A stretch of DNA of 64,000 nucleotides, from contig CAWJIR010000009.1 in assembly GCA_963843015.1 (NCBI GenBank), positions 170,226 to 234,225 on the forward strand, given 5' to 3'. Numbering within the stretch: the stretch's first letter is position 1; every line of letters begins with the position of its first letter. The notes beneath the pieces were generated by a model. It was not told the origin of the DNA. It did no database searches and was given only the letters and a program-made list of their open reading frames with translations. Made by a program: the position numbers and the translations under genes. This document shows positions 14,328 through 26,697 of this stretch, in pieces. This DNA comes from an uncultured Chloroflexia bacterium (lineage in GTDB: Bacteria; Chloroflexota; Limnocylindria; QHBO01).

Positions 14328-15000
14328 GTGCTGGAGTTCATCGACCAGACGGTCATCCCGTTCTTCCTGGACCTGTACGACACCCTCGGCTACGTCGGCG
14401 TGGCGGTGGGCGTGGCCCTGGAGACCTTCATCCCCATCATCCCGTCCGAGATCATCGTGCCCATGGCGGGCTGGAAGATCTCCCAGTCGGCAGCGGATCC
14501 GACGGTGACCGAATGGCTGACCGATGCGCCCTGGACCTTCATCGGGGTCATGGTGGCGGCCACCATCGGGGCGGCGGTCGGCTCGCTGGCCGGCTATCTC
14601 ATCGGCGCCTGGGGTGGTCGCCCACTGCTGGACCGATATGGACGCTACGTCCACATCAACGCCGATGACCTCGACCGCGCCGACGCCTGGTTCGCGCGCT
14701 ACGGCGGATGGGCCGTGTTCTTCGCCCGCTTCGTGCCGCTCCTGCGCGCCTTGATCAGCTACCCCGCCGGCGTGGCCCGCATGCCGCTGGGCCGGTACAT
14801 GGTCTTCTCGGTCGCGGGCTCGATCCCGTGGAACCTGGCCCTCGTCACCGCCGGCTGGCTGCTGGGCGAGAACTACGAGGCCCTGTACGAGGCGATCCGC
14901 CCGTTCGAGATCCTGATCTACGTCGTCGTCGTGCGTGGGCGGCGCCTTCATCCTGCTTCCGCTGGATCCGCGGTCGCGGCTCGCCTCGGGAGGTTTGACC
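14328..15000 (+). CDS. DedA/SNARE-associated (TVP38) family membrane protein
   Basis: MLEFIDQTVIPFFLDLYDTLGYVGVAVGVALETFIPIIPSEIIVPMAGW...RYGGWAVFFARFVPLLRALISYPAGVARMPLGRYMVFSVAGSIPWNLALVTAGWLLG. The C-terminal frame is uncertain; the listed ORF runs to 15098 and would overlap the riboswitch. Confidence 0.7.
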
Positions 15001-15044
15001 GGTCCGACGGTCGAGGTAGTGGCACGATCGGCGCAACTGAACGA

Positions 15045-15232
<188 letters not shown>

Positions 15233-15356
15233 CACGAGGCGTTCCTCCGACGACCCGCGAGACCGATCGGCGCTGCGCGCCCGCCGGATCCGCGGCGAGA
15301 CGGACCGATGGCCTCGCCGCTCCCCCGCCCCGCTGGCGCTGGCGCATGGGAGACCA

Positions 15357-16193
15357 ATGGCGAGCGAACCCCGATCCGGTCCGGCGATCACGATCGAGGA
15401 CCTGGCCGTCACGTTTTCCGGCCCTGCCGGGCCGCTCACCGCCCTGGACGGGTTGAGCGGGGAGGTGGCCGGCGGGGAGCTGCTGGCGGTCATCGGTCCG
15501 AACGGATCCGGCAAGAGCACCCTCCTGCGGGCGCTGGCCGGGCTGCTGCCGCCGACCGCGGGGCGCATCGGTCTGGCGCCCGATGGATCACCGCCGCGCG
15601 CCGGTGATGGCCGGGTCGGGCTCGTCTTCCAGCAGCCGCGCCTCCTCGGCTGGCGATCGACGCTGGACAACGTCACCCTCCCGCTCGAGCTGGAGGGCGT
15701 GCCGGCCGCCGAGCGCCGAGCGGCGGGGGAGCGGGCTCTGGCCCAGGTCGGCCTGACCGATGTCGCCGGCCTTCGGCCCCGCGAGCTGTCGGGCGGGATG
15801 CAGCAGCGGGTCGCGCTGGCCCGGTCGCTGGTCACCGACCCGCCGATCCTGCTCCTCGACGAGCCGTTCAGCGCCCTCGACGCCCTGACGCGCGACGCGT
15901 TCGATGCCCAGCTCGAGGCGCTGTGGCTGGCCGACCGGCGGACGGTGGTCCTGGTCACGCACTCGGTCAGCGAGGCCGTCCGGCTGGCCGACCGGATCTG
16001 GGTCCTGACTCCGCGCCCGGGCCGGGTCGCGGCCGAGATCCCGGTTCCGCTGCCGCGCCCTCGGCCGGCCAGTGCGTCGGCGGATCCGTGCGGCAGCCGC
16101 CGTCGAGGCCCAGGTTCGCGCCGCGCTGGCATCGGTCCATGCGCCCGAGCTCGAGGGCTGGGCCGAGGCGCCGCCGGAGGTCGCGGCATGAGC
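15357..16193 (+). CDS. ABC transporter ATP-binding protein (NitT/TauT family; RibXY-type riboflavin importer ATPase candidate), frameshifted near 16070
   Basis: Walker A GPNGSGKST, Q-loop, signature LSGGMQQRVALARSL, Walker B ILLLDEPFSALD, H-loop VTHS. Its stop overlaps the next ATG as ATGA. Confidence 0.8.
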
Positions 16194-16946
16194 GCCGTTC
16201 TGCGCCGGCTCGGCGCTGGTCGCTGCTGAGCGCCGCCGGGTTCCTGCGTCGTCTGGAGGCTCGTGGTGGTCATCGGCGACTACCCCGAGTACATCCTCCC
16301 CGCGCCGGAGGTCGTGGCCGCCCGTGCGGTGGAGGCCATCCAGAACGGGACGCTCCAGCCGCACCTGGCGGCGACGCTGGAGGAGAGCGTCATCGGCTTC
16401 GTCGTCGGGGCCGCGGTGGCGGTCGCGGTCGGGCATCCTGTTGGCCAAGAGCCTGACCGCCGAGCGGGTCCTGTCGCCGTACCTCGTCGCCGCCCAGGCG
16501 GTGCCCATCCTCGCCCTCGCGCCCGCTGATCGACATCTGGTTCGGCGGCGGGCTGACCGCGCGGGTCGTGATCTGCGCCCTGATCGTGTTCTTCCCGATC
16601 GCGATCGCGACCATGGTCGGCATCCGCGGCACCGACCCGCTGCTGGTCGAGATGGCGCGCGCCAACGGCGCCCGCGGTCCGCAGATCACCCGGCTGCTCG
16701 AGATTCCGACGGCCATGCCCGTCCTGTTCGGCGGGCTGCGGGTGGGCGTGACCCTGGCGGTCATCGGTGCGGTCGTGGCCGAGTGGGCCGGCGCCAGCGT
16801 CGGGCCTGGGCGTCCTGATCAACATTGCCGACCAGGGCCTGTTCGACACCCCGCTCATGTTCGTGGCCCTCGCCACCCTGGCCCTGCTGGGCCTGACCTT
16901 CTATGCCGTCGTGCTCCTCGCCGAGCGCGTGATGGTTCCCCGTTGA
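16188..16946 (+). CDS. ABC transporter permease (NitT/TauT family), frameshifted at least three times
   Basis: MSAVLRRLGAG..WSLLSAAGFLVVWRLVVVIGDYPEYILPAPEVV...VIGFVVGAAVAVAVG...SPYLVAAQAVPILALAP...LIDIWFGGGLTARVVICALIVFFPIAIATMVGIRGTDPLLVEMARANGA...GGLRVGVTLAVIGAVVAEWAGAS.. reconstructed across frames. Confidence 0.7.
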
Positions 16947-16963
16947 GCCCCGAAAGGAAACCG

Positions 16964-18019
16964 ATGCGTCCTCGCGCCCTGTCCCTGGCCGTCGCTCTCA
17001 CCCTGGCCGTTGCGGCCTGCACCCCGAGCGCGTCGCCGAGCCCGAGCGCCAGCGCGGAGCCGTGCGCCAAGCGGCCTCCGGCAGCCCGCCGTGGCGAGCT
17101 GCGCCAGGTGCGCCTCCTGCTCGGCTTCCGACCCGACGTCCAGTTCGCGCCGTTCTACCTGGCCCAGCAGGACGGCTATTTCGAGCGCGCTGGGCTGGAG
17201 GTCACCATCGAGCATGCCGATGCCGGCGAGCTCATCCGCCTGGTGGCCGACGGCCAGGCCGAGTTCGGGGTGGCGGATGCGACCGACGTGATGATCGCCC
17301 GCACACGGCGGCATCCCGATCAAGCTACATCTCGACCCTCTATCAGTATCTTCCCGGTTGCCGTGATCGGCCCGGTCGGAGCGGTGCCGTCGGATCCGGC
17401 AGACCTGGCCGGGATGACCATCGGGACGCCCGGCCGGTTCGGCTCCTCATGGCACGCTCTGCTGGCGCTGCTGGATGCCGGCGGGCTGACGCCGGATGAC
17501 GTGACGATCCGCGAGTACCCGCAGTTCAACCAGGTCGAGGGGCTGCTCGAACGGCGACGTCGACCTCATCACGGGCTTCCGCAACAACGAACCGCTGCGC
17601 CTGGCGGCCGAGGGCATGGACACGGAGCTCCTGACGGTCGACGAGGTCGCGCCGCTGCCGGGGCCGGGAGTGATCGCCGGAGACGAGCTGCTGGACACCG
17701 ACGTCGAGCTCGCGTCCTCCTTCGCCGCCGCCGTGGTGCTCGCCCAGCAGGCGATCGAGCGCAGAGCCCGAGGTCGGCCTTCAGGCGGCCGTCGAGGCGG
17801 TCCCCACGCATCGCCGAGGACGAGGCGACGGCCATGGCCGTGCTCGAGGCGACGATCCCGATCTGGCTCGGCGCCGGAGCCCGGAATCGACGGCGAGTGA
17901 TCAACGAAGCCGTCTGGCAGAGCGGGCACGCAGATCATGCTCGATCTCGGGTTCATCGACGGGTCGGTCCCGATGGAGGACATGATCGAGCCGGTCCACG
18001 ACCGCGATCCGACCAGCTA
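16964..18019 (+). CDS. ABC transporter substrate-binding lipoprotein (NMT1/THI5-like, ThiY/RibY-type), frameshifted
   Basis: MRPRALSLAVALTLAVAACTPSASPS has a lipobox (VAAC). Then ...RQVRLLLGFRPDVQFAPFYLAQQDGYFERAGLEVTIEHADAGELIRLVADGQAEFGVADATDVMIA... and ...GMTIGTPGRFGSSWHALLALLDAGGLTPDDVTIREYPQFNQVEGLL...VDLITGFRNNEPLRLAAEGMDTELLTVDEVA... in a second frame. Confidence 0.7.
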
Positions 18020-18765
18020 GCCGCCGATCAGGAATACGAGGCCGGCCACCGACGAGGACGACCTCGATGACGGCGACGAAGATCCGCTCCGGACATCCGG
18101 TCCACGATCCGCTTGCCGATCCACGAGCCGGCGATCATGGCCGGCGCCATCAGCAGGCCGATGCCCACAGTGAGCGGCGGTCAGGATCGCCGCAATGCCG
18201 TAGGCGACGAGCTTGGCCAGCGTGCATGACGACGCGTCGCCGCCGCTTCGGTCCCGATGTAGGCGCTCTTCACCAGCCCGGCGGCGAGGAAGAACGGCGC
18301 CATGATCGGCCCGATGGATCCGACCAGGGCGGACGCGAACGCGAAGACGGCGCCGATGACGGTGAAGGTCTCGGGCCCGAGGACACCGGACGGCCGCGGC
18401 CGGAGGTGGCGCCACGCGACCGAGGCCAGCAGGAACGCGCCGATGAGCCGGGTCAACGCCTCGAGCGGGGCGGCCGCGAACAGGAAACCGCCGATCAGCG
18501 CGGCCGGGATGCCGCCCAGCGCGAACCAGCCGACGATCGGCCACGCGATCGCGCCGCGGTTGAGGGCAACCCGCGAGCCATTGCTGACAAGCCCGGCGAC
18601 GGCCAGGATCGGGATCGCATCGCGTGGCCCGAACAGCGCGACCAGGACCGGGAGCAGGATGGCCGCTCCGCCGAAACCGGCGACCGCGGCCACGATGCTG
18701 GCCGCGAAGGCGGCGGCCAGCAGCAGGGCTACCTCGGGGAGGAGCTCGATGACGGGGCCCGCCAT
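18017..18765 (-). CDS. TauE/SafE (DUF81) family anion exporter, frameshifted near the C-terminus
   Basis: MAGPVIELLPEVALLLAAAFAASIVAAVAGFGGAAILLPVLVALFG...LAVAGLVSNGSRVALNRGAIAWPIVGWFALGGIPAALIGG.... Its stop is convergent with, and overlaps, the substrate-binding protein stop. Confidence 0.65.
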
Positions 18766-18774
18766 CGGTATCGG

Positions 18775-19639
18775 TCAGGCGCGCGGAGCGGATGCCGCCA
18801 GGCGTTCCGCGGCGGTGACGACCTGGTCGAGGAGCATGATCGTGGTCACCGGACCAACGCCGCCCGGGACCGGGGTGATGGCGGCCACCAGCGGCTGAAC
18901 CCGCTCGTAGTCCACGTCGCCGACCACGCCGTCCGGGGTGACGTTGATGCCGCAGTCCACGACCACCGTCTGGGCATTGACGTGCTCCGGACCGATGAGT
19001 CTCGGCTTGCCGACCGCGACGACCAGGATCTCGGCCTGCTGGGTCTCGGCGACGACGTCCTCGGTCTCGCTGTGGGCGACCGTCACCTCCGCCCGGTGGT
19101 TGGCGAGGAGGGCGGCGGTGGGCTGGCCGACCACCTTCGACCGGCCGACGACCACGACCCGGCGGCCGGTGATGGGGACCTGGTAGTGGCGGAGGATCTC
19201 GAGAACGGCCACCGCGGTGGCCGGGACGAAGGCCTCCTCGCCGCGGGCCAGCCGGTCGGCATTGACCGGGCTTGCGCCGTCCACGTCCTTGGCCGGGTCG
19301 ACCAGGCTGCCGACCGCGTCGGGGTCGAGGTGGGCGGGCACGGGATAGATGACCACGATCCCCGCCACTGCGGGGTCGGCGTTCAGGGCGCCGATGGCGG
19401 CGGCGGCATCGGTCAGGTCGACGTCGTCCGCCAGTCGAACGTCCGACGGAGCCACGCCGATGGCGCTGGCGGCTCGGGCGAGGCTCTGGGCATAGGCGAC
19501 CTCGGGTCCGGTGTCCGCGAAGCGGACGATGGCCAGGCCGGGACCGCTCCCGCCGCGGGTCAGCTGCGCGACGCGGTTCGGTGAGGTCCTCGCGATGGAG
19601 GGCCGCGATCGAGCGGCCGTCGAGGATCTGGCCACTCAT
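18775..19639 (-). CDS. folD: Bifunctional 5,10-methylene-THF dehydrogenase / 5,10-methenyl-THF cyclohydrolase
   Basis: MSGQILDGRSIAA... (frame 1), then ...VAQLTRGGSGPGLAIVRFADTGPEVAYAQS...LVDPAKDVDGASPVNADRLARGE...TVAHSETEDVVAETQQAEILVVAVGKPRLI...VVVDCGINVTPDG.VGDVDYE. Confidence 0.85.
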
Positions 19640-20289
19640 CCGGCGATCCGCTGCCGGACCGCCGCGAGCGCCTCTCCCTCGCGCTGCGCCACCGCCGACT
19701 CCAGCTCCGCGAGCCGTCGAGCGCCGTCCAGCCGCAGCGGGTGGTCGTCCGGCAGCGCCGGCAGGTTGATGGCCACGTTGAAGGCCGCTCCCCGGGCGGC
19801 GGCCGCCGCGAACAGGGCGGCGACGCCGGCATCGCTGATCGCGTTCCGGTTCCCGATGGGCGCCATGCGGGCCGCCAGGTCCAGGACATCGAGGGCCAGG
19901 CGCATGACGCGGAGCGGGACCTCGGTGGCCGCAACCGAGGCATCGGCAATGGCGGCCTTGCGGGCTGCCTTCTCGTCGTCCGTCTCGCGTGGCAGGCGAC
20001 GCGCCTCCGCCACGCGGTCGTACGCGGCGGCGTCCTCCTGGGCGGCGTCGAGCAGGGCAACGCGCAGCTCGCCGGCAGCCGCACCGATCTGGCGGGCGAC
20101 GGGGTCCACCTCCTCGTACTGCGGGTGTCCGACCGTCAGCTCGCAGACCATCTCGACCAGCGCGGCTCCCAGCGCTCCGCCGAGGGCGCTCGCGCTTCCA
20201 CCGCCCGGCGTCGGCGCGCGCGAGGCGAGCCGTTCCGTGAGGTCACGGACGGTCAGCTCAGCGAGCGAGGGAGGCGGGGCGCTGCTCAT
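19636..20289 (-). CDS. Formimidoyltetrahydrofolate cyclodeaminase (stand-alone FTCD C-domain)
   Basis: MSSAPPPSLAELTVRDLTERLASRAPTPGGGSASALGGALGAALVEMVCELTVGHPQYEE...LPRETDDEKAARKAAIADASVAATEVPLRVMRLALDVLDLAARMAPIGNRNAISDAGVAALFAAAAARGAAFNVAINL. Its stop overlaps the folD start. Confidence 0.75.
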   Translation of the reverse strand: MSSAPPPSLAELTVRDLTERLASRAPTPGGGSASALGGALGAALVEMVCELTVGHPQYEEVDPVARQIGAAAGELRVALLDAAQEDAAAYDRVAEARRLPRETDDEKAARKAAIADASVAATEVPLRVMRLALDVLDLAARMAPIGNRNAISDAGVAALFAAAAARGAAFNVAINLPALPDDHPLRLDGARRLAELESAVAQREGEALAAVRQRIAG

Positions 20290-20385
20290 CGGCAGCCGAT
20301 TGTACGGGCAGGCACGTGGATGCCCGGCGGGTGCGCGGGAGAGGGGACGCGGCACCCACCGGGCGGCGGATTGGGACCGGGGCGT

Positions 20386-20649
20386 CTAGGCGGCGGCGTC
20401 CAGGGCGTCGACGAACCAGCGCCGCCGGCGGGCGTCGAAGACCAGCTCCAGCGATTCACCCGAATCAACGTCCACCACCACCGTCAGCCGAGGTGAGCTG
20501 CCCGCCGGATAGGCGGCCCGCTCGTCGCGGACGGCCCCGACCCGGACGACCCGCAGGTCGCGGTCCGCGAACCGGACCCGGGCCGGGAGCGCGTGCCGCG
20601 CGTCCCAGGCCACCGAGGCCGCGACCGGGGTGATGGAGACGAGTGCCAT
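20386..20649 (-). CDS. Small hypothetical protein (87 aa) directly downstream of a LexA-box promoter; candidate SOS-induced effector
   Basis: MALVSITPVAASVAWDARHALPARVRFADRDLRVVRVGAVRDERAAYPAGSSPRLTVVVDVDSGESLELVFDARRRRWFVDALDAAA. There is no transmembrane segment. The start sits 7 nt after a TATTGT -10 element, so the mRNA would be leaderless. Confidence 0.45.
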   Translation of the reverse strand: MALVSITPVAASVAWDARHALPARVRFADRDLRVVRVGAVRDERAAYPAGSSPRLTVVVDVDSGESLELVFDARRRRWFVDALDAAA

Positions 20650-20662
20650 GCCCGTCACAATA

Positions 20663-20686
20663 CGAACAGATGTTCTAGTTGTCAAG
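20663..20686 (-). promoter_or_regulatory. SOS promoter with Cheo-type LexA operator (GAACagatGTTC) between -35 and -10
   Basis: The minus strand reads cTTGACAactaGAACatctGTTCgTATTGTgacgggcATG. That is -35 TTGACA, a 17-nt spacer containing the palindrome GAAC-N4-GTTC, -10 TATTGT, then a 7-nt gap to the ATG of the small ORF. The operator overlaps the dinB stop codon. Confidence 0.7.
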
Positions 20687-21870
20687 ATCCTTCGTCGCCC
20701 GTTCCGTCGGACGATCGGAGAACCGCCGATCGGGCGCCTCGCGGAGCAGTCGGGCCCGCGTGATGGCCTTGTCGCCGAACCGGTCACGAACCGCATCGGT
20801 CGCCTCCGCCAGGCGCTGGACACGCTGTCCGTCCTCGAACAGGGTGAGCTGCTGGGCGTTCGCCAGGGAGATGCCGGTGATCCCGATCAACCGAACCGCG
20901 CGACCCGGCTCGAGGGTCTTGTCCAGCAGCGCCCGAGCGGCCTCCAGGATGAGCTGGCTGTCGGTCGTCGGGTGGGGGAGGTGGCTCTGGCGCGTCAGCG
21001 TCTCGAAACCCTCGTACCGGAGCTTCAGCTGCACCCCGCCCGCCGCAAGCCCGTGACGCCGCAGCCGGCTGGCCACCGATTCGGCGATCCACAGCAGGGA
21101 CCCGTCCAGGCCGCTCCGCTCGGTGACGTCGGCGTTGAACGTGTGCTCATGACCGATGGATTTCGGCGCCTGCCCGGAGGTCACCCGAGAGGGGTCGATC
21201 CCGCGAGCCCGTTGCCCGAGCTCCACCCCCATCCGCCCGAACCGGCGGCGCAACGTCTCTGCGGGGACCGCTGCCAGCTGACCGATGGTCGTCACCCCGT
21301 AGTCGGCCAGTGCCTGGCGGACGCGGGGGCCCACTCCCCAGAGGCGGGTCACCGGCAGCGGGGCCAGGAATGCGGCCTCCTCGCCGGGCTCGACGATGAC
21401 CAGGGCATCGGGCTTGCGAAGGTCCGAGGCCACCTTGGCGACAAGCTTGTTCGTCGCCACCCCGACGCTGACCACCAGCCCGACTTCCTCGCGGACGCGA
21501 GACTTCAGCGCCCGACCGATGGTCGGCCCGTCACCCGCGGGTGCTCCGCTGACGTCGAGGAAGGCCTCGTCCATGCTGATCGGCTCCACCAGCGGGGTGT
21601 AGTCGTCGAAGATGGCCATCACCTGGTGGCTGACCTCGGCGTACCGCTCGAAGCGGCCCGGCAGGAACGCGGCCTGGGGACAGAGGCGGGCCGCCGTCCG
21701 CAGCGGCATGGCGGAATGGACCCCGAACGCGCGAGCCTCGTACGACGCGGCGCTCACCACGCCGCGGTCGTCCGGGTCCGCCGCCGACGATGACCGGGCG
21801 ACCGACGCAGGGACGGGTCGTCGTGGACCTCGACCGAGGCGTAGAACGCGTCCATGTCGGCGTGGATGAT
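20675..21870 (-). CDS. dinB: DNA polymerase IV (Y-family), N-terminal frameshift
   Basis: [33 protein letters not shown].. (frame 1), then ...[73 protein letters not shown]...[16 protein letters not shown]..., which is colinear with DinB. Confidence 0.85.
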
Positions 21871-21874
21871 CGTG

Positions 21875-23047
21875 CGCATCGGTCAGGCTCGGTCAGGTCG
21901 GTTCCCGGGTACCGATGGTACGCACTCTGCCCGAGCAGCGGCAGCAGGCGGGCCGCCTCCGACTCGAGCGCTTCGCGGTCGCTCGCCCTCAGGCGGCCGA
22001 AGGGCCGCAGGTCGAGCCGCGGCGACCCGCCGCTGTCCAGCTTCGGCAGCCACGTCCCGGCGACCAAGCCGTCGACCAGGAAGGTGGGGAGCACGTCCGC
22101 GTTCTTGGTGATGACGGTGGCCTGGTGCTCCGGCGGCAGGACCCGCGCTCGGTGGGCGGTGCCGTAGGCCAGCAGCAGGCTGTCCCAACGGGCGAGGAGC
22201 CGGGGAGGGGCGGGCGTGTCCGCGTCCGGTCGCGGTGCGCCAGGCAGGTCGACCAGGGTCCGGCCCGCTTCGTCGCTGAACTCGATCAGCTCCTCGTCGC
22301 ATGCCGTTCACCACCGACCGCCAGCGGCCGACGTTTCTCCCTCGCCCGACGTAGGCGACCAGATCCTCGACGCTCGCCGGGCCGAAGGCGGCGAGGTAGT
22401 GGCGGGTCAGCCGTGCCGCGGCGAGATCGGGGTCGGCCTCATCCGCGCGCGGCGGCCCGAGCCACTCCGCGGCGGGCAGGTACCGGGCCCGGCCGTAGGT
22501 CTCCTCGGGATAGGGGACGTGGATGAGCGGGACCGTGCCGCTGAAATGCCGCCACAGCGGTCGGTTGGGCGGGATCGCGGTCCGCCCCATCTCCGACTGG
22601 AGGATGGCCTCGATCTCGTGGATCGCCAGCGGTCGCTCGGCCATGGCCGCCAGGACCGACCGCGTGCGCCTTCCCGATCCGCTTGCCGAGCGGCGAGGTG
22701 GCCGGATCGCGCTTGAAGAGGAGCCGCCACTGGTCGAGGCGGAACGGATGGGTGAGCGTGGACATCGGCCAGAAGTCCGCCGCGCTCACGACGTGGACCG
22801 TCATCCGCATCAGCGAGCCGCGGACGACGGTGCGACGGGCGCGTGCCCGGTAGAGGTCGACCGGCGCCGCGGTCGCGGGCAGCCGCGCCATGAGCGCGAG
22901 CGGCGGCCAATCCGGGTGCTGGGCCTGCAGCGATCCGGCCCGCTCGACGAGCCGCGCCGCCGACGCGTGTGGCAACGGCGTCAGCAGGCCCTGGCGGGCG
23001 AGCGTGGCCCGGTTCAGCGCGCGGAGGGTCAGGAGCGGCGGAGACAT
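21875..23047 (-). CDS. YcaQ/AlkZ-family winged-helix DNA glycosylase-like protein (DUF1006), frameshifted
   Basis: [24 protein letters not shown]...[26 protein letters not shown]...[27 protein letters not shown]..., ...[18 protein letters not shown]...[33 protein letters not shown]..., and C-terminus ...[55 protein letters not shown]. The order and motifs follow E. coli YcaQ / Streptomyces AlkZ (interstrand-crosslink glycosylases). Confidence 0.55.
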
Positions 23048-23098
23048 CGGTCTGGCTCCAGCCTAGCGACGGCGCTGCCGCCGCCACGGGTCACGTGG

Positions 23099-23762
23099 TC
23101 AGAGCTTGCGAATGACGCCGACGACCTTGCCCTGGATCTGGAGATCGGTGGCGTAGATGGGTTCGAGCTCCGCATTGGCCGGCTGGAGGCGGATGCGTCC
23201 GTCCTCGCGGAAGAACCGCTTCAGCGTCACGCCGTTGTCCTCGAGCAGTGCCACGACGATGTCGCCGTCCTGGGCGGTGGCCTGGGGCTGGACGATGACG
23301 AAGTCGCCGTCGTCGATGAGGGCATCGATCATGCTCTTGCCCCGAACCCGGAGAACGTACGAATCCTCGCGAGCCTGGATGGATCGCGGAACCTCCATCG
23401 GCTCCGGGTCCTGGTAGGCCTCGATGGGCTGGCCGGCGGCGATCTCGCCGACCAGCGGCAGCGCGATGGGATCGCGTTCGATCGGCATCCGGAAGGGGGT
23501 GATCGTCCCACCCGTCGAGTGCGGCGGCGCCAGGCGAGGCCTCGGCCTCGGCCGTGAGCCGGAGCGCACGCGACGAGCGGCTGCCACGCTCGAGCAGTCC
23601 GGAGCGTTCCAGGGCAACCAGGTGGTGATGGACGGCCGACGTGGACGCCAGCCCGACCGCGTCGGCGATCTCGCGCACGGATGGCGGGTAGCCCCGCTCC
23701 GCCACGGTCCGGGCAATGAACTCGATGATGCGCTGCCGCCGCTCGGCGTCGTGCCGGGTCAC
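23099..23762 (-). CDS. lexA: LexA repressor (N-terminal frameshift)
   Basis: N-terminus MTRHDAERRQRIIEFIARTVAERGYPPSVREIADAVGLASTSAVHHHLVALERSGLLER (winged HTH). C-terminus ...ALPLVGEIAAGQPIEAYQD...SYVLRVRGKSMIDALIDDGDFVIVQPQATAQDGDIVVALLEDNGVTLKRFFREDGRIRLQPANAELEPIYATDLQIQGKVVGVIRKL carries the S24 peptidase Ser/Lys motifs GKSM...K. Confidence 0.85.
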
Positions 23763-23778
23763 GCCGTCGCAGCCTAGC

Positions 23779-23815
23779 AGAACACCTGTTCTATTGTCAA
23801 TTGCTCTGCTATGAT
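23779..23815. promoter_or_regulatory. Divergent SOS promoter region: Cheo-type LexA operator GAACacctGTTC inside the lexA promoter and next to a TGcTATGAT extended -10 for the divergent DUF1232 gene
   Basis: The minus strand reads gagcaaTTGACAatagaacaggtgttctgcTAGGCTgcgacggcGTG(lexA start). That is -35 TTGACA, an 18-nt spacer containing GAAC-N4-GTTC, -10 TAGGCT, and a leaderless-type start. On the plus strand tgcTATGAT (23807-23815) lies ~45 nt upstream of the DUF1232 ATG. Confidence 0.7.
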
Positions 23816-23859
23816 CCGCGCCCACCAAATCTGCGTCGGACCGGAGACCGATACCGATC

Positions 23860-24350
23860 GTGATGCGTCCCGGCCGGTGGCGCTATCTGCGCACCGCCAA
23901 GGTCATGCTCCAGTTCCCCACCTACGCCCGCCTGGTGTGGGGGCTCGCCCGCGACGCGCGGACCCCGATCGGTCTGAAGCTCCTGCTGGGCGCGGCGATC
24001 ACCTACGTCGTCACCCCGCTCGACCTGATCCCGGACGTGGTTCCCATCCTCGGCCACGCCGACGACCTCACCGTCCTGCTCCTGGTGCTGGACGTGTTCA
24101 TCAGCAACGCGCCGGCGGCCGTCCGCGACGAGCACCTCGCCCGGGCCCGTACGGGCCAGGCGGTCCTCGACGAGGACCTCGCCCAGCTGCGGTCCCTGCT
24201 CGGCGGCACGGTTCGACCGGATTCGCGACGCGCTCCCGCAGCTGCTCGAGCGGTTCGGCGCGCTCGGCGACTCCGACGAGGTCAAGCACCAGATCGCCGA
24301 GTGGCGCGCCGCGAGCCGCGCGGGCCACGCCGGCGAAGGAGGTCGCTGGG
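23860..24350 (+). CDS. DUF1232 (YkvA-like) small membrane protein, divergent from lexA; 3' end frameshifted
   Basis: [83 protein letters not shown] matches the DUF1232 core (LL..A..Y..SPIDLIPD..P..G..DD). Confidence 0.6.
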
Positions 24351-24352
24351 CG

Positions 24353-24800
24353 ATGAAGGTCATCCTCAAGCGTGACGTGAAGGGTCTCGGCCGCGAGGGC
24401 GACCTCCGCGAGGTCAAGGACGGGTATGCCCGCAACCACCTCATCCCGACCGGGGCCGCGGTCCTCGCCGACCTCGGAGCGGTGCGGAACTGGGAGCGCC
24501 ACCGCGATCAGCGCGAGCAACGCGACCTCGCCGTCGCAGGCGGATGCCGACGCGCTCGCTGCCCGCCTGAACGAGCTCACCGTCCAGATCGGCGTCAAGG
24601 CCGGCGAGCGCGATCGGCTGTTCGGGTCGGTCACGACCCGCGACATCGCGGACCGGCTGCGGCAGGAAGGGATCGAGATCGATCGCCACGACATCCACCT
24701 CCGCGAGCCGATCAAGACCGTCGGCGAGCACCCGGTCCGGGTCCACGTCATGGCCGGCGTCGAGGCGCAGCTCCGGGTCGAGGTCATCCCCGAGCACTGA
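24353..24800 (+). CDS. rplI: 50S ribosomal protein L9 (one frameshift near 24520)
   Basis: [39 protein letters not shown]... then ...[96 protein letters not shown] ribosome-binding site lies upstream. Confidence 0.85.
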
Positions 24801-24961
24801 ACCGGTGCGCGACAGGTGAGCTGTCACGGGACCCGATTTCACTGGCGGTGTGTTCTCCACCGCGGGCCGACAGGTTGAGGGCCGTTATCCCCGACGCCGT
24901 TTGACATCGGTGGACAAGCCCATTCCCGCGGCGGGCGCGGGTCCGTACCGTCCTTGAACCG

Positions 24962-26321
24962 ATGAGCATTGACCGCGTCGCCCCCCAGTCGGTCGAAGCC
25001 GAGCAGAGCGTGCTCGGGTCGATCCTCATCGACCCCGACGCCATTCTCAAGGTCGCGCGACTTCCTGCACGCGACCGATTTCTACCGGCCCCAGCACTCG
25101 GACATCTACGAGGCCATGCTGGCTCTCCACTCGCAGCGGGAGCCCATCGACCTCGTCACGCTCGGCGACGAGCTGACCCGTCACGACCGCCTGGAGGGGG
25201 TCGGCGGGCCGGCGTACCTGGCCACCCTGATGAACGCGGTCCCGACCGCCGTCCACGTCGAGCACTACGGGCGGATCGTCGAGCAGAAGGCGGTTCTCCG
25301 GAACCTGATCGCGGCCGCGGGCAAGATCGCGGCGGTGGGCTACGAGGAGGCCCACGACACCGCCGCGGCCATCGATCGGGCCGAGTCCATCCTGTTCGAG
25401 ATCAGCCAGCGCCGAACGGTGGCCGGCTTCGAAACGCTGGCCACCCTCCTCGGCCAGGCGTACGACCGGCTCGAGTACCTCCACGAGCACCGCGGCCAGA
25501 TTCTGGGCATCCCCACCGGCCTGGCCGGGCTGGATACCCTGCTCGGCGGGTTCCAGCCCTCGGACCTCGTCATCCTGGCCGCCCGGCCCAGCGTCGGGAA
25601 GACGAGCCTCGCCCTGAACGTGGCGCTCCATGCCGCCATCCACGAGCAGAAGCGGGTCGCCATCTTCTCGCTGGAGATGAGCCGCGAGCAGCTTGCCCTC
25701 CGCCTGCTGTCCTCCGAGACGGGGATCAACCCCCGCCCCCTGCAGACCGGGTTCATGGAAGAGACGGACTGGTCGAAGATCGCGAAGGTCATGAACGAGA
25801 TGGCCAGCGCCCGGATGTGGATCGACGACTCGCCCACCCTGTCGGTTCTCGAGCTGCGGACCAAGACCCGGCGGCTGGAGGTCGAGCAGCAGGGGCTCGA
25901 CCTGGTGATCGTCGACTACCTGCAGCTGATGCAGGCCTCGACCCCCTCCCGGGATCCGAACCGCGTCCAGGAGGTGAGCGAGATCAGCCGTGGCCTGAAG
26001 AACCTCGCCCGCGAGCTGAAGGTGCCGGTGCTCGCCCTCTCCCAGCTGTCGCGCAACGTCGAGCAGCGGGGCGGGATGGGCGAGCCGCGCCTGTCGGACC
26101 TCCGTGAGTCCGGATCCCTGGAGCAGGACGCCGATGTCGTCATCTTCCTGTACCGGGCCGAACAGGAGACCAACCCCGATGCCGACCTCGAGCTGGTGAA
26201 GGCCAAGATCGCCAAGCACCGCAACGGGCCCATCGGCGAGGTTCCGCTCCAGTTCCGCCGGACGCAGACCCGGTTCTACTCGGTGGCGGCTCGCGAAGAG
26301 GTCGAAGTTACGCCGTACTAA
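24962..26321 (+). CDS. dnaB: Replicative DNA helicase (frameshift near 25050; no intein)
   Basis: MSIDRVAPQSVEAEQSVLGSILIDPDAILKVA.. then ...GIPTGLAGLDTLLGGFQPSDLVILAARPSVGKTSLALNVALHAA (Walker A)...IVDYLQLMQ...RGLKNLARELKVPVLALSQLSRNVEQR...LSDLRESGSLEQDADVVIFLYR. Total length ~453 aa. Confidence 0.9.
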
Positions 26322-26397
26322 AGGGTTTCCCACGCTCGCGCGGCGTGGCATCATCGGCGGCTGGTACGTCCGGAACCCGAAGGAGAGGCAGGGCCCT

Positions 26398-26697
26398 GTG
26401 TTCACCGACAAGACCATCGCGTGCCGCGACTGCGGGATGGACTTCGTGTTCTCGGCCGGCGAGCAGCAGTTCTACCAGGAGAAGGGCCTGACCCACGAGC
26501 CCCAGCGCTGTCCGAGCTGTCGTGCCGTCGCCAAGCAGAATCGAGCCCTGGGCATCGGCACCGGTGGGGGCGCGCGGGAGATGCATGCCGCGGTCTGCGC
26601 CGAATGTGGGGGCCAGGCGCTGGTCCCGTTCCTGCCCCGCAACGACCGGCCGGTCTACTGCAGCACCTGCTTCGACAAGGTCCGCGCCCGCTCCTGA
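26398..26697 (+). CDS. Small zinc-ribbon protein with four CxxC pairs
   Basis: MFTDKTIACRDCGMDFVFSAGEQQFYQEKGLTHEPQRCPSCRAV...AAVCAECGGQALVPFLPRNDRPVYCSTCFDKVRARS has the pairs C9/C12, C38/C41, C67/C70 and C88/C91. GTG start with an AGGAGAGG ribosome-binding site. Confidence 0.6.
   Translation: MFTDKTIACRDCGMDFVFSAGEQQFYQEKGLTHEPQRCPSCRAVAKQNRALGIGTGGGAREMHAAVCAECGGQALVPFLPRNDRPVYCSTCFDKVRARS

Follow-up and report, generated by a model that had tools for sequence, protein, structure and literature searches.

A conserved LexA-controlled locus of the Limnocylindria includes a class-restricted small gene, a candidate SOS effector

The 64-kb stretch of DNA analyzed here (the window) comes from an uncultured bacterium of the Limnocylindria, a class of the Chloroflexota found in soil and freshwater. 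Judged by its sequence, it contains the core SOS locus of this genome, with mostly ordinary SOS content: along the minus strand from position 23800 to 20386, the repressor gene lexA is followed by a gene for an AlkZ-like DNA glycosylase, by dinB, which encodes the Y-family DNA polymerase IV (Pol IV), and by a small open reading frame (ORF) of 87 codons, and a DUF1232 membrane-protein gene runs divergently from lexA. The operator type and the presence of lexA and dinB in the regulon are already known from SOS systems of the Gram-positive type; new is the small ORF, which represents a class-wide uncharacterized protein family with an operator as conserved as that of lexA itself. Locus and gene family are very probably real and under LexA control, and we think it likely that the small protein is an SOS effector under tight repression and of short lifetime, with another protein as its binding target. 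Of the specific roles considered, that of a checkpoint factor, meaning a transient inhibitor of division or replication, is the likeliest, ahead of one as polymerase modulator, and is put forward tentatively.

Two palindromes of the form GAAC-N4-GTTC mark the locus, operator 1 in the lexA promoter and operator 2 before the small ORF. The window has no other such sites, with 0.53 expected (two or more occurred in 8 of 100 shuffles), and a matrix trained on relatives scored the two at 31.7 and 29.7 bits, respectively, with the rest of the window and all shuffles at 14 bits or less. Related loci, all chosen through the small ORF, contain 234 perfect boxes in 883 kb of sequence; 148 of these lie upstream of the small ORF and 71 in the lexA/DUF1232 intergenic region, so that 219 occupy the same two places as the window operators. 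Several of the 15 boxes found elsewhere are small-ORF sites in loci missed by the tblastn probe. The intergenic region has one box per locus in all 71 loci, and one or two boxes precede the small ORF in each of the 81 loci with a readable upstream region. A second sample, drawn through DinB from metagenomes, has a box after dinB in 25 of 26 in-clade loci. By sequence, these palindromes at the promoters of damage-response genes are Cheo-type SOS boxes, and the position of the operator in the lexA promoter spacer (71/71 loci) predicts LexA autoregulation.

Each operator sits in the spacer of a promoter with a TTGACA −35 element (Table 1). The lexA pattern, TTGACA-wTA-box-TGC-TAnnnT, is kept in all loci. 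The −35 element of the small-ORF promoter falls within the last codons of dinB, and the first base of operator 2 is the G of the dinB stop codon TAG (20677-20675); this promoter is conserved in close relatives and was the sole match in a strict sigma-70 scan of positions 20100-24500, agreeing at 10 of 12 positions. Within the window's clade the promoter spacer holds a single box, and 13-16 nucleotides (nt) separate this box from the start codon, for lexA and the small ORF alike. The window's start codons lie only 7-8 nt past the −10 element with no purine-rich tract or Shine-Dalgarno sequence, a geometry shared by close relatives. In the rest of the class, by contrast, the small ORF is preceded by two boxes, whose starts lie 27-42 nt from each other, and then by a 30-60-nt leader with a GGAG Shine-Dalgarno sequence, and lexA likewise has a leader. 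Leaderless transcripts are the most likely reading for lexA and the small ORF in the window's clade, because of this start geometry, the absent Shine-Dalgarno sequence, and the conserved N-terminus of the small protein, MAL(V/I)SI. An initial annotation of this DNA, made from the letters alone, had described a compact LexA-controlled locus with two Cheo-type operators in promoter spacers (23780-23791 and 20664-20675), the second overlapping the dinB stop and serving only the small ORF, and had suggested leaderless transcripts. All of this agrees with the present analysis: operators and promoters lie exactly where it placed them, Pfam confirms the gene identities, and leaderless starts gain support from relatives.

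Several further observations concern these upstream regions. Automatic gene calls of lexA and the small ORF sometimes start too far upstream and translate the LexA boxes (peptide IEQVF), as in locus L003 (3986-4711) and protein P0070. Loci L021-L083 and L084-L091 have two-box leaders, a form absent from the window, and in 55 of the 69 distinct ones the 3′ half of box 2 pairs with a stretch lying 15-20 nt downstream; the stem varies in a compensatory manner (GCCTG/CAGGC, ACCTG/CAGGT, GTCCG/CGGAC), with GTGCC(C) as a recurring motif of the loop or leader. For these leaders, RNAalifold returned a 5-bp stem with compensatory changes at three pairs and only a small covariation term. This pairing may reflect a stem-loop in the 5′ mRNA or a second regulatory site.

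The small ORF is by all sequence measures a real, syntenic gene, and its operator marks it as a dedicated SOS output. Its homologues form 57 clusters at 90% identity, are 53-98% identical to it, and are nearly all 85-92 amino acids (aa) long; where a source is named, it is Chloroflexi or Candidatus Limnocylindria. When 1.84 billion representative proteins were searched exhaustively with a profile, only 94 family members turned up, and a scan of reference genomes placed the family in 108 species-level genomes, almost all of them metagenome-assembled genomes (MAGs) of Limnocylindria/Chloroflexota. The ratio of nonsynonymous to synonymous substitution rates (dN/dS) is 0.03-0.15 against close relatives, indicating purifying selection, and the G+C fraction at third codon positions of the frame is 0.91. 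The family alignment shows conserved motifs in addition to the N-terminus mentioned above. On this sequence evidence the small protein belongs to a new, uncharacterized family restricted to Limnocylindria.

Throughout all loci with readable flanks, the small ORF lies immediately downstream of dinB, with occasional insertions between the two (L071, L076, L089, L090). The sample anchored on DinB has it in all 26 in-clade loci with enough downstream sequence and in 1 of 30 more distant loci. The initial annotation had taken the small ORF for a dedicated SOS output lacking a transmembrane segment, which family, dN/dS, synteny, and its own LexA box all support; it had also named absence or loss of synteny in relatives as the sign of a spurious ORF, and the opposite was found (81/81 boxes; 26/26 in-clade loci). 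Loci of the Limnocylindrales (L085-L087, L091) carry the lexA-DUF1232-rplI segment in inverted orientation with respect to dnaB and dinB, and both the divergent lexA/DUF1232 pair and the dinB-small ORF pair are kept through this inversion. In these inverted loci lexA is no longer upstream of dinB, dinB is without a perfect LexA box, and the small ORF keeps two.

A few family members appeared as domain fusions (P0124, P0075, P0115, P0129, P0100), which we rejected as read-throughs, frameshift fusions, or a chimera that starts partway through the fold. Among them, P0124, probably an assembly chimera, is a subtilase that ends in 60 residues corresponding to the C-terminal two-thirds of the small protein.

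The small protein has a mass of 9.5 kDa, an isoelectric point of 8.5, and no hydrophobic or transmembrane segment. AlphaFold2, given the family alignment, produced a confident six-stranded all-beta model (predicted local distance difference test 87.9; predicted template modeling score 0.77). The most conserved stretch of the family, VRDERAAYPxGxxPR, forms the loop between strands 3 and 4 and is the lowest-confidence part of the model, which suggests an exposed interaction loop. Searches of Pfam (E up to 10), NCBIfam, PHROGs, and PADLOC yielded no family match except for one spurious hit to RsxB, and comparison of the model with solved and viral structures found no similar fold. Neither profile nor fold similarity was detected to DinI, YebG, SulA, or UmuD; the suggestion in the initial annotation of a DinI/YebG-type effector thus drew no support from any of these searches. 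The nearest approach to a known family is DUF6504 (PF20114), of similar size and with an expected beta-rich character: the divergent member P0101 matches profile positions 24-100 of 103 at 22.3 bits, below the Pfam gathering threshold of 24.2, and P0091 reaches 14.2 bits. The window protein has no DUF6504 match even at E up to 10, nearly all other family members likewise give none, a homology search with P0101 and a tblastn search of annotated plasmids returned no genuine DUF6504 protein, and no paper in the literature collection searched names DUF6504 or PF20114.

The C-terminus is the other strongly conserved feature. All 83 small ORFs from the loci end in Ala-Ala whatever the length of their tail, as do 179 of 213 database members, compared with 4.3% of background ORFs; the preceding residue varies (RAA, TAA, AAA, PAA, and others). 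Terminal Ala-Ala is the critical element of ssrA-like degrons recognized by ClpXP (PMC10862746), and by analogy the end of the small protein suggests such a signal. The N-terminal fragment of LexA left after cleavage is cleared by the same class of signal according to Neher et al. 2003 (PMC196044), as that work is cited in PMC10862746, and the corresponding fragment of the window LexA would end in ...GEIAA. A search of the window for tRNA and tmRNA genes found none.

The genes of the lexA operon carry the expected hallmarks once single-base errors in the window (see below) are corrected. The window LexA matches LexA_DNA_bind (PF01726, 75 bits) and Peptidase_S24 (PF00717, 103 bits) in two different frames, which form one ORF in the short-read relative L009. 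The corrected protein reads ...GEIAAGQP..., ...RGKSMID..., and ...VTLKRF..., in which we take IAAG to be the Ala-Gly cleavage site and the Ser of GKSM and the Lys of LKRF to be the catalytic dyad, by analogy with E. coli LexA. With its helix-turn-helix and S24 domains, cleavage site, and dyad, it is by sequence a LexA repressor of the S24 family. DinB is a Y-family polymerase with matches to IMS (PF00817), IMS_HHH (PF11798), and IMS_C (PF11799); the restored protein has both acidic motifs, one of them SMDEAFLD.

The AlkZ-like gene matches PF06224 in fragments in the window (46.7 and 32.7 bits) and over the full length in the intact L009 orthologue (200.6 bits, profile positions 1-327 of 329). 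Both sequences have Q41-A42-Q43 near the N-terminus, a putative counterpart of the AlkZ motif. The AlkZ-like (AZL) subfamily has the catalytic motif (Q/H)-Phi-Q and the YcaQ-like (YQL) subfamily Q-Phi-D (PMC9040887); the QAQ of the locus protein is consistent with AZL, and a YQL assignment was rejected because Q-Phi-D is replaced by QAQ. A phmmer search of the Protein Data Bank with the AlkZ-like protein did not reach AlkZ or YcaQ chains and returned only artefactual RecA matches from repeated chains. The locus protein shares a full-length PF06224 domain with AZL glycosylases, and its QAQ would fit their motif, but it differs in its setting, a LexA-controlled operon between lexA and dinB rather than a biosynthetic gene cluster. 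It occurs in 31 of 71 loci (44%), always between lexA and dinB, and is thus an accessory insert, not a fixed feature of the locus. The pairing of a YcaQ/AlkZ-like gene with dinB, which had been highlighted initially, therefore stands as to the identity of the gene (Pfam) and falls as a constant feature.

Combining these elements, we propose the following model. In the undamaged cell, LexA would sit in both promoter spacers and block RNA polymerase. Upon DNA damage, RecA-stimulated self-cleavage of LexA would free both promoters, the first driving the operon of lexA, the AlkZ-like glycosylase gene, and dinB, and the second driving only the 87-aa gene. This gene would be translated efficiently only from its own transcript with a 5′-terminal AUG and not from read-through of the lexA operon; its own promoter is probably the sole route to efficient translation, because a read-through mRNA offers neither a Shine-Dalgarno sequence nor a 5′-terminal AUG. 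The small protein would be strongly induced, bind another protein through the VRDERAAYPxGxxPR loop, and be removed rapidly through its Ala-Ala end by a ClpXP-type protease, acting as a cytosolic counterpart of SulA. The near-consensus promoter, the double operators in most of the class, the degron-like C-terminus, and the restriction to one lineage suggest a product that is needed briefly and harmful if it persists. In its full form the proposal describes a new fold family of cytosolic SOS effectors, confined to Limnocylindria, repressed through one or two LexA operators, made from a leaderless transcript, cleared through Ala-Ala, and arresting division or replication or gating Pol IV through the RDERAAYPxG loop; we advance this complete version with reserve, as possible rather than probable.

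Small, lineage-restricted proteins with no homology to one another are typical of SOS checkpoint effectors (PMC6851548). Like SulA of E. coli, the small protein would be cytosolic, repressed by LexA, harmful if persistent, and equipped with a C-terminal signal for an ATP-dependent protease. SulA, however, is an alpha/beta protein of 169 aa cleared by Lon, whereas the small protein has 87 aa, an all-beta model, and a ClpXP-type Ala-Ala end, and the two share neither sequence nor fold similarity. YneA, SosA, ChiZ, and DivS are likewise small, lineage-restricted SOS proteins with protease-controlled turnover and genes near lexA (PMC6851548); these are membrane proteins encoded divergently from lexA, whereas the small protein is soluble, its gene lies downstream of dinB, and the gene divergent from lexA here is DUF1232, in an operon with rplI.

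Several points weigh against assigning the small protein an effector role. The organisms are uncultured, and the role is a prediction from sequence and a structural model. The known lexA-adjacent checkpoint inhibitors of Gram-positive bacteria are membrane proteins and the small protein is not. Terminal Ala-Ala is necessary for recognition by ClpXP and not sufficient (PMC10862746), the tail of the window protein, LDAAA, is a weak match to the ssrA consensus, and alanine is abundant in a genome of 71% G+C, though the background of Ala-Ala ends was measured as given above. The leaderless starts are read from promoter geometry. The whole dnaB...folD block is syntenic across the class, so that adjacency alone says little about function, and the strict adjacency to dinB fits a role as polymerase accessory equally well.

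This last reading, in which DinB would have the small protein as an accessory or regulatory subunit that tunes translesion synthesis during the SOS response, as UmuD′ does for UmuC or UmuD and RecA do for E. coli DinB, is the strongest of the alternatives, although we consider it rather unlikely. UmuD′ is a small, beta-rich, SOS-induced protein encoded beside a Y-family polymerase gene, and in E. coli it is a substrate of ClpXP and is cleared by it. The small protein resembles it in its size, its beta-rich model, its putative ClpXP signal, and its SOS-type gene next to that of a Y-family polymerase; the gene follows dinB directly in every readable locus and in the 26 in-clade loci of the DinB-anchored sample, and the two stay together where lexA has been inverted away. 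Yet the small ORF always has its own promoter and operator or operators and is not translationally coupled to dinB, and the boxes of the Limnocylindrales (none perfect at dinB, two at the small gene) imply that the two are not co-regulated there. The gene lies downstream with a separate promoter rather than upstream and overlapping as umuD does, extra genes separate it from dinB in the four loci with insertions named above, and the protein lacks the S24 fold of UmuD and any self-cleavage site. Moreover, FTCD_C and folD are equally invariant on the other side of the small ORF, which makes its position weak evidence.

A second alternative assigns the role of SOS-induced division inhibitor to the DUF1232 membrane protein, as the positional equivalent of YneA, SosA, and ChiZ, instead of to the small protein. 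DUF1232 and lexA form a divergent pair in 69 of 69 loci and stay paired through the Limnocylindrales inversion, and division inhibitors divergent from lexA are a recognized pattern (PMC6851548). In the window, the extended −10 element TGCTATGAT lies 18 nt from operator 1, which places the operator at about −31 to −42 of the DUF1232 promoter. This 18-nt distance is peculiar to the window's clade; the TGnTATCAT motif of the promoter is conserved, yet elsewhere it stands about 31 or 49 nt from the box, and in the Limnocylindrales 167-1014 nt separate the box from the DUF1232 gene. The operator overlaps the DUF1232 −35 region only in the window's clade, and LexA control of the DUF1232-rplI unit is possible in the window from its sequence but is not a conserved feature. 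The DUF1232 stop codon overlaps the start of rplI, the gene for ribosomal protein L9, by 4 nt in every locus, with dnaB next; because of this overlap we place the two genes in one operon, and a promoter that also serves rplI and probably dnaB points to a housekeeping transcription unit. The domain (PF06803) was matched in the window and in L009, whose orthologue has two hydrophobic segments and a charged tail; no LysM, other extracellular effector domain, or indeed any other domain was found, and the family is widespread with no known link to division. Thus, for the idea raised in the initial annotation that this gene is a yneA/sulA-type inhibitor, the divergent position and, in the window's clade, the operator at the promoter hold, whereas the operon with rplI, the variable spacing, and the missing LysM domain speak against it, and overall we regard it as improbable.

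DUF1232 is in any case an unusual conserved operon partner for L9. Loci L021, L038, and L047 also carry an inverted repeat of about 30 nt (e.g., gaggtggcggatttccggattcgccacctc) in the lexA/DUF1232 region, between the −10 element of DUF1232 and the −35 element of lexA.

There is a slimmer chance still that, like DinI, RecX, or PsiB, the small protein tunes SOS signaling as such, with the RecA filament or the cleavage of LexA as its point of action. It is small, soluble, controlled by a LexA box, and about the size of DinI, and the conserved, charged loop (RDER...), which the model exposes, would suit protein binding. It shows no relation in sequence or fold to DinI, RecX, PsiB, or YebG, however, and its two operators and putative degron point to harm upon misexpression, which is uncharacteristic of DinI.

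The window sequence itself requires caution, since lexA, the AlkZ-like gene, dinB, DUF1232, and rplI are none of them continuous ORFs in it, and dnaB also carries insertions. In addition to the breaks listed in Table 1, rplI is interrupted near 24533 and dnaB has an insertion near 25058. When the window was aligned to seven relatives, each break proved to be an insertion of one base that the window alone carries, with about 24 such insertions over the 12 kb that could be compared (14385-26649), or about one per 500 bp, including dnaB, rplI, and genes beyond folD. The same signature is found in L001 and L005, MAGs of the same long-read series, and is mostly missing from short-read MAGs. Removal of one base restores a LexA of 220 aa, and removal of two restores a DinB of 400 aa; the short-read relative L009 gives a clean map with lexA of 221 aa, an AlkZ-like protein of 383 aa, DinB of about 394 aa, and a small ORF of 87 aa. 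Because the insertions are spread evenly, hit essential genes, and recur in other long-read MAGs, we conclude from the sequence comparison that the frameshifts are artefacts of an insertion-prone long-read assembly. The contrary reading, that they are real and the SOS locus is decaying into pseudogenes, could appeal to at least seven breaks within lexA, the AlkZ-like gene, dinB, and DUF1232 beside an intact small ORF, but it was rejected as barely credible, given the even density that extends to essential dnaB and rplI and to genes downstream of folD, the recurrence in long-read and not, for the most part, in short-read MAGs, and the technical-looking signature of events that in these genes are all insertions. 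The initial annotation had described four intact head-to-tail genes and had missed at least seven frameshifts in the genes it named; its dinB start (21870) and AlkZ-like end (21875) are also off by up to about 20 nt, the correct positions being ATG 21879 and about 21893. Other ORFs in the window are probably falsely split as well, and ORF-level readings of a sequence from such an assembly therefore need frameshift-aware checking.

Table 1. Positions of the genes, operators, and promoter elements of the SOS locus in the window.
Feature	Position	Strand	Remarks
lexA	23099..23762	−	about 220 aa; GTG start 23762; predicted leaderless; 1-nt insertion near 23526-23540
AlkZ-like (HTH_42) DNA glycosylase gene	21893..23047	−	about 383 aa; ATG 23047, 51-nt gap after lexA stop (23099); second gene of lexA operon; frame breaks near 22660 and 22310; stop destroyed by insertion near 21896 (GAC(C)TGA)
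dinB, Y-family DNA polymerase IV	20675..21879	−	about 400 aa; ATG 21879, stop TAG 20677-20675; frame breaks near 21809 and 21777
Small ORF, 87 aa	20386..20649	−	ATG 20649; predicted soluble all-beta protein; C-terminal Ala-Ala
DUF1232 membrane-protein gene	23863..24356	+	about 165 aa; ATG 23863; stop overlaps rplI ATG (24353); frame break near 24209
LexA operator 1, GAACACCTGTTC	23780..23791	palindrome	common to lexA and divergent DUF1232 promoters; minus-strand reading GAACAGGTGTTC
LexA operator 2, GAACAGATGTTC	20664..20675	palindrome	before small ORF; minus-strand reading GAACATCTGTTC
lexA promoter	23771..23800	−	TTGACA 23800-23795, 18-nt spacer with operator 1, TAGGCT 23776-23771, 8 nt to GTG 23762
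Small-ORF promoter	20657..20685	−	TTGACA 20685-20680, 17-nt spacer with operator 2, TATTGT 20662-20657, 7 nt to ATG 20649
Extended −10 of DUF1232-rplI transcription unit, TGCTATGAT	23807..23815	+	direct reading

The gene order around the locus is constant in all loci with readable flanks, with dnaB, rplI, and DUF1232 on one strand and lexA, the AlkZ-like gene where present, dinB, the small ORF, FTCD_C, and folD on the other. A conserved one-carbon block follows the small ORF directly (18775-20355, minus strand, in the window; 7590-10742 in L085); it is made up of an FTCD_C cyclodeaminase-like gene and folD, joined in some orders by FTHFS. In many distant loci, FTCD_C is separated from the small ORF by a formyltransferase-like gene encoded on the opposite strand (L030, 6265-7113); this extra gene of about 1 kb was considered as a further SOS gene and rejected on account of its identity and strand. 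The Limnocylindria-type locus with the same synteny also occurs in MAGs labeled Vicinamibacterales, Pleomorphomonadaceae, Dormiibacterota, Methylomirabilota, Steroidobacteraceae, Zixiibacteriota, Binatia, and Angelobacter (loci L005, L010, L023, L032, L043, L065, L069, and L081), and these contigs are probably mis-binned.

The locus resembles the SOS regulons of Gram-positive bacteria and Chloroflexi in its GAAC-N4-GTTC box in the lexA promoter, in the architecture and cleavage motifs of LexA, and in having a Y-family polymerase in the regulon. It differs in that lexA heads an operon with dinB, with or without the AlkZ-like glycosylase gene, in the leaderless start predicted for lexA in the clade, and in its second conserved target, a gene family not seen elsewhere. 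A literature search found no paper that connects LexA with Limnocylindria. The SOS regulons of a few cultured phyla are well understood, but SOS checkpoint and modulator proteins are lineage-specific and usually invisible to homology. Here, comparative genomics alone has yielded a candidate SOS effector in an abundant, uncultured class of soil and freshwater bacteria, encoded by a small gene whose sequence features suggest tight repression and fast removal of its product. If the full proposal is true, the small protein would give the Chloroflexota their first described SOS checkpoint or translesion regulator.

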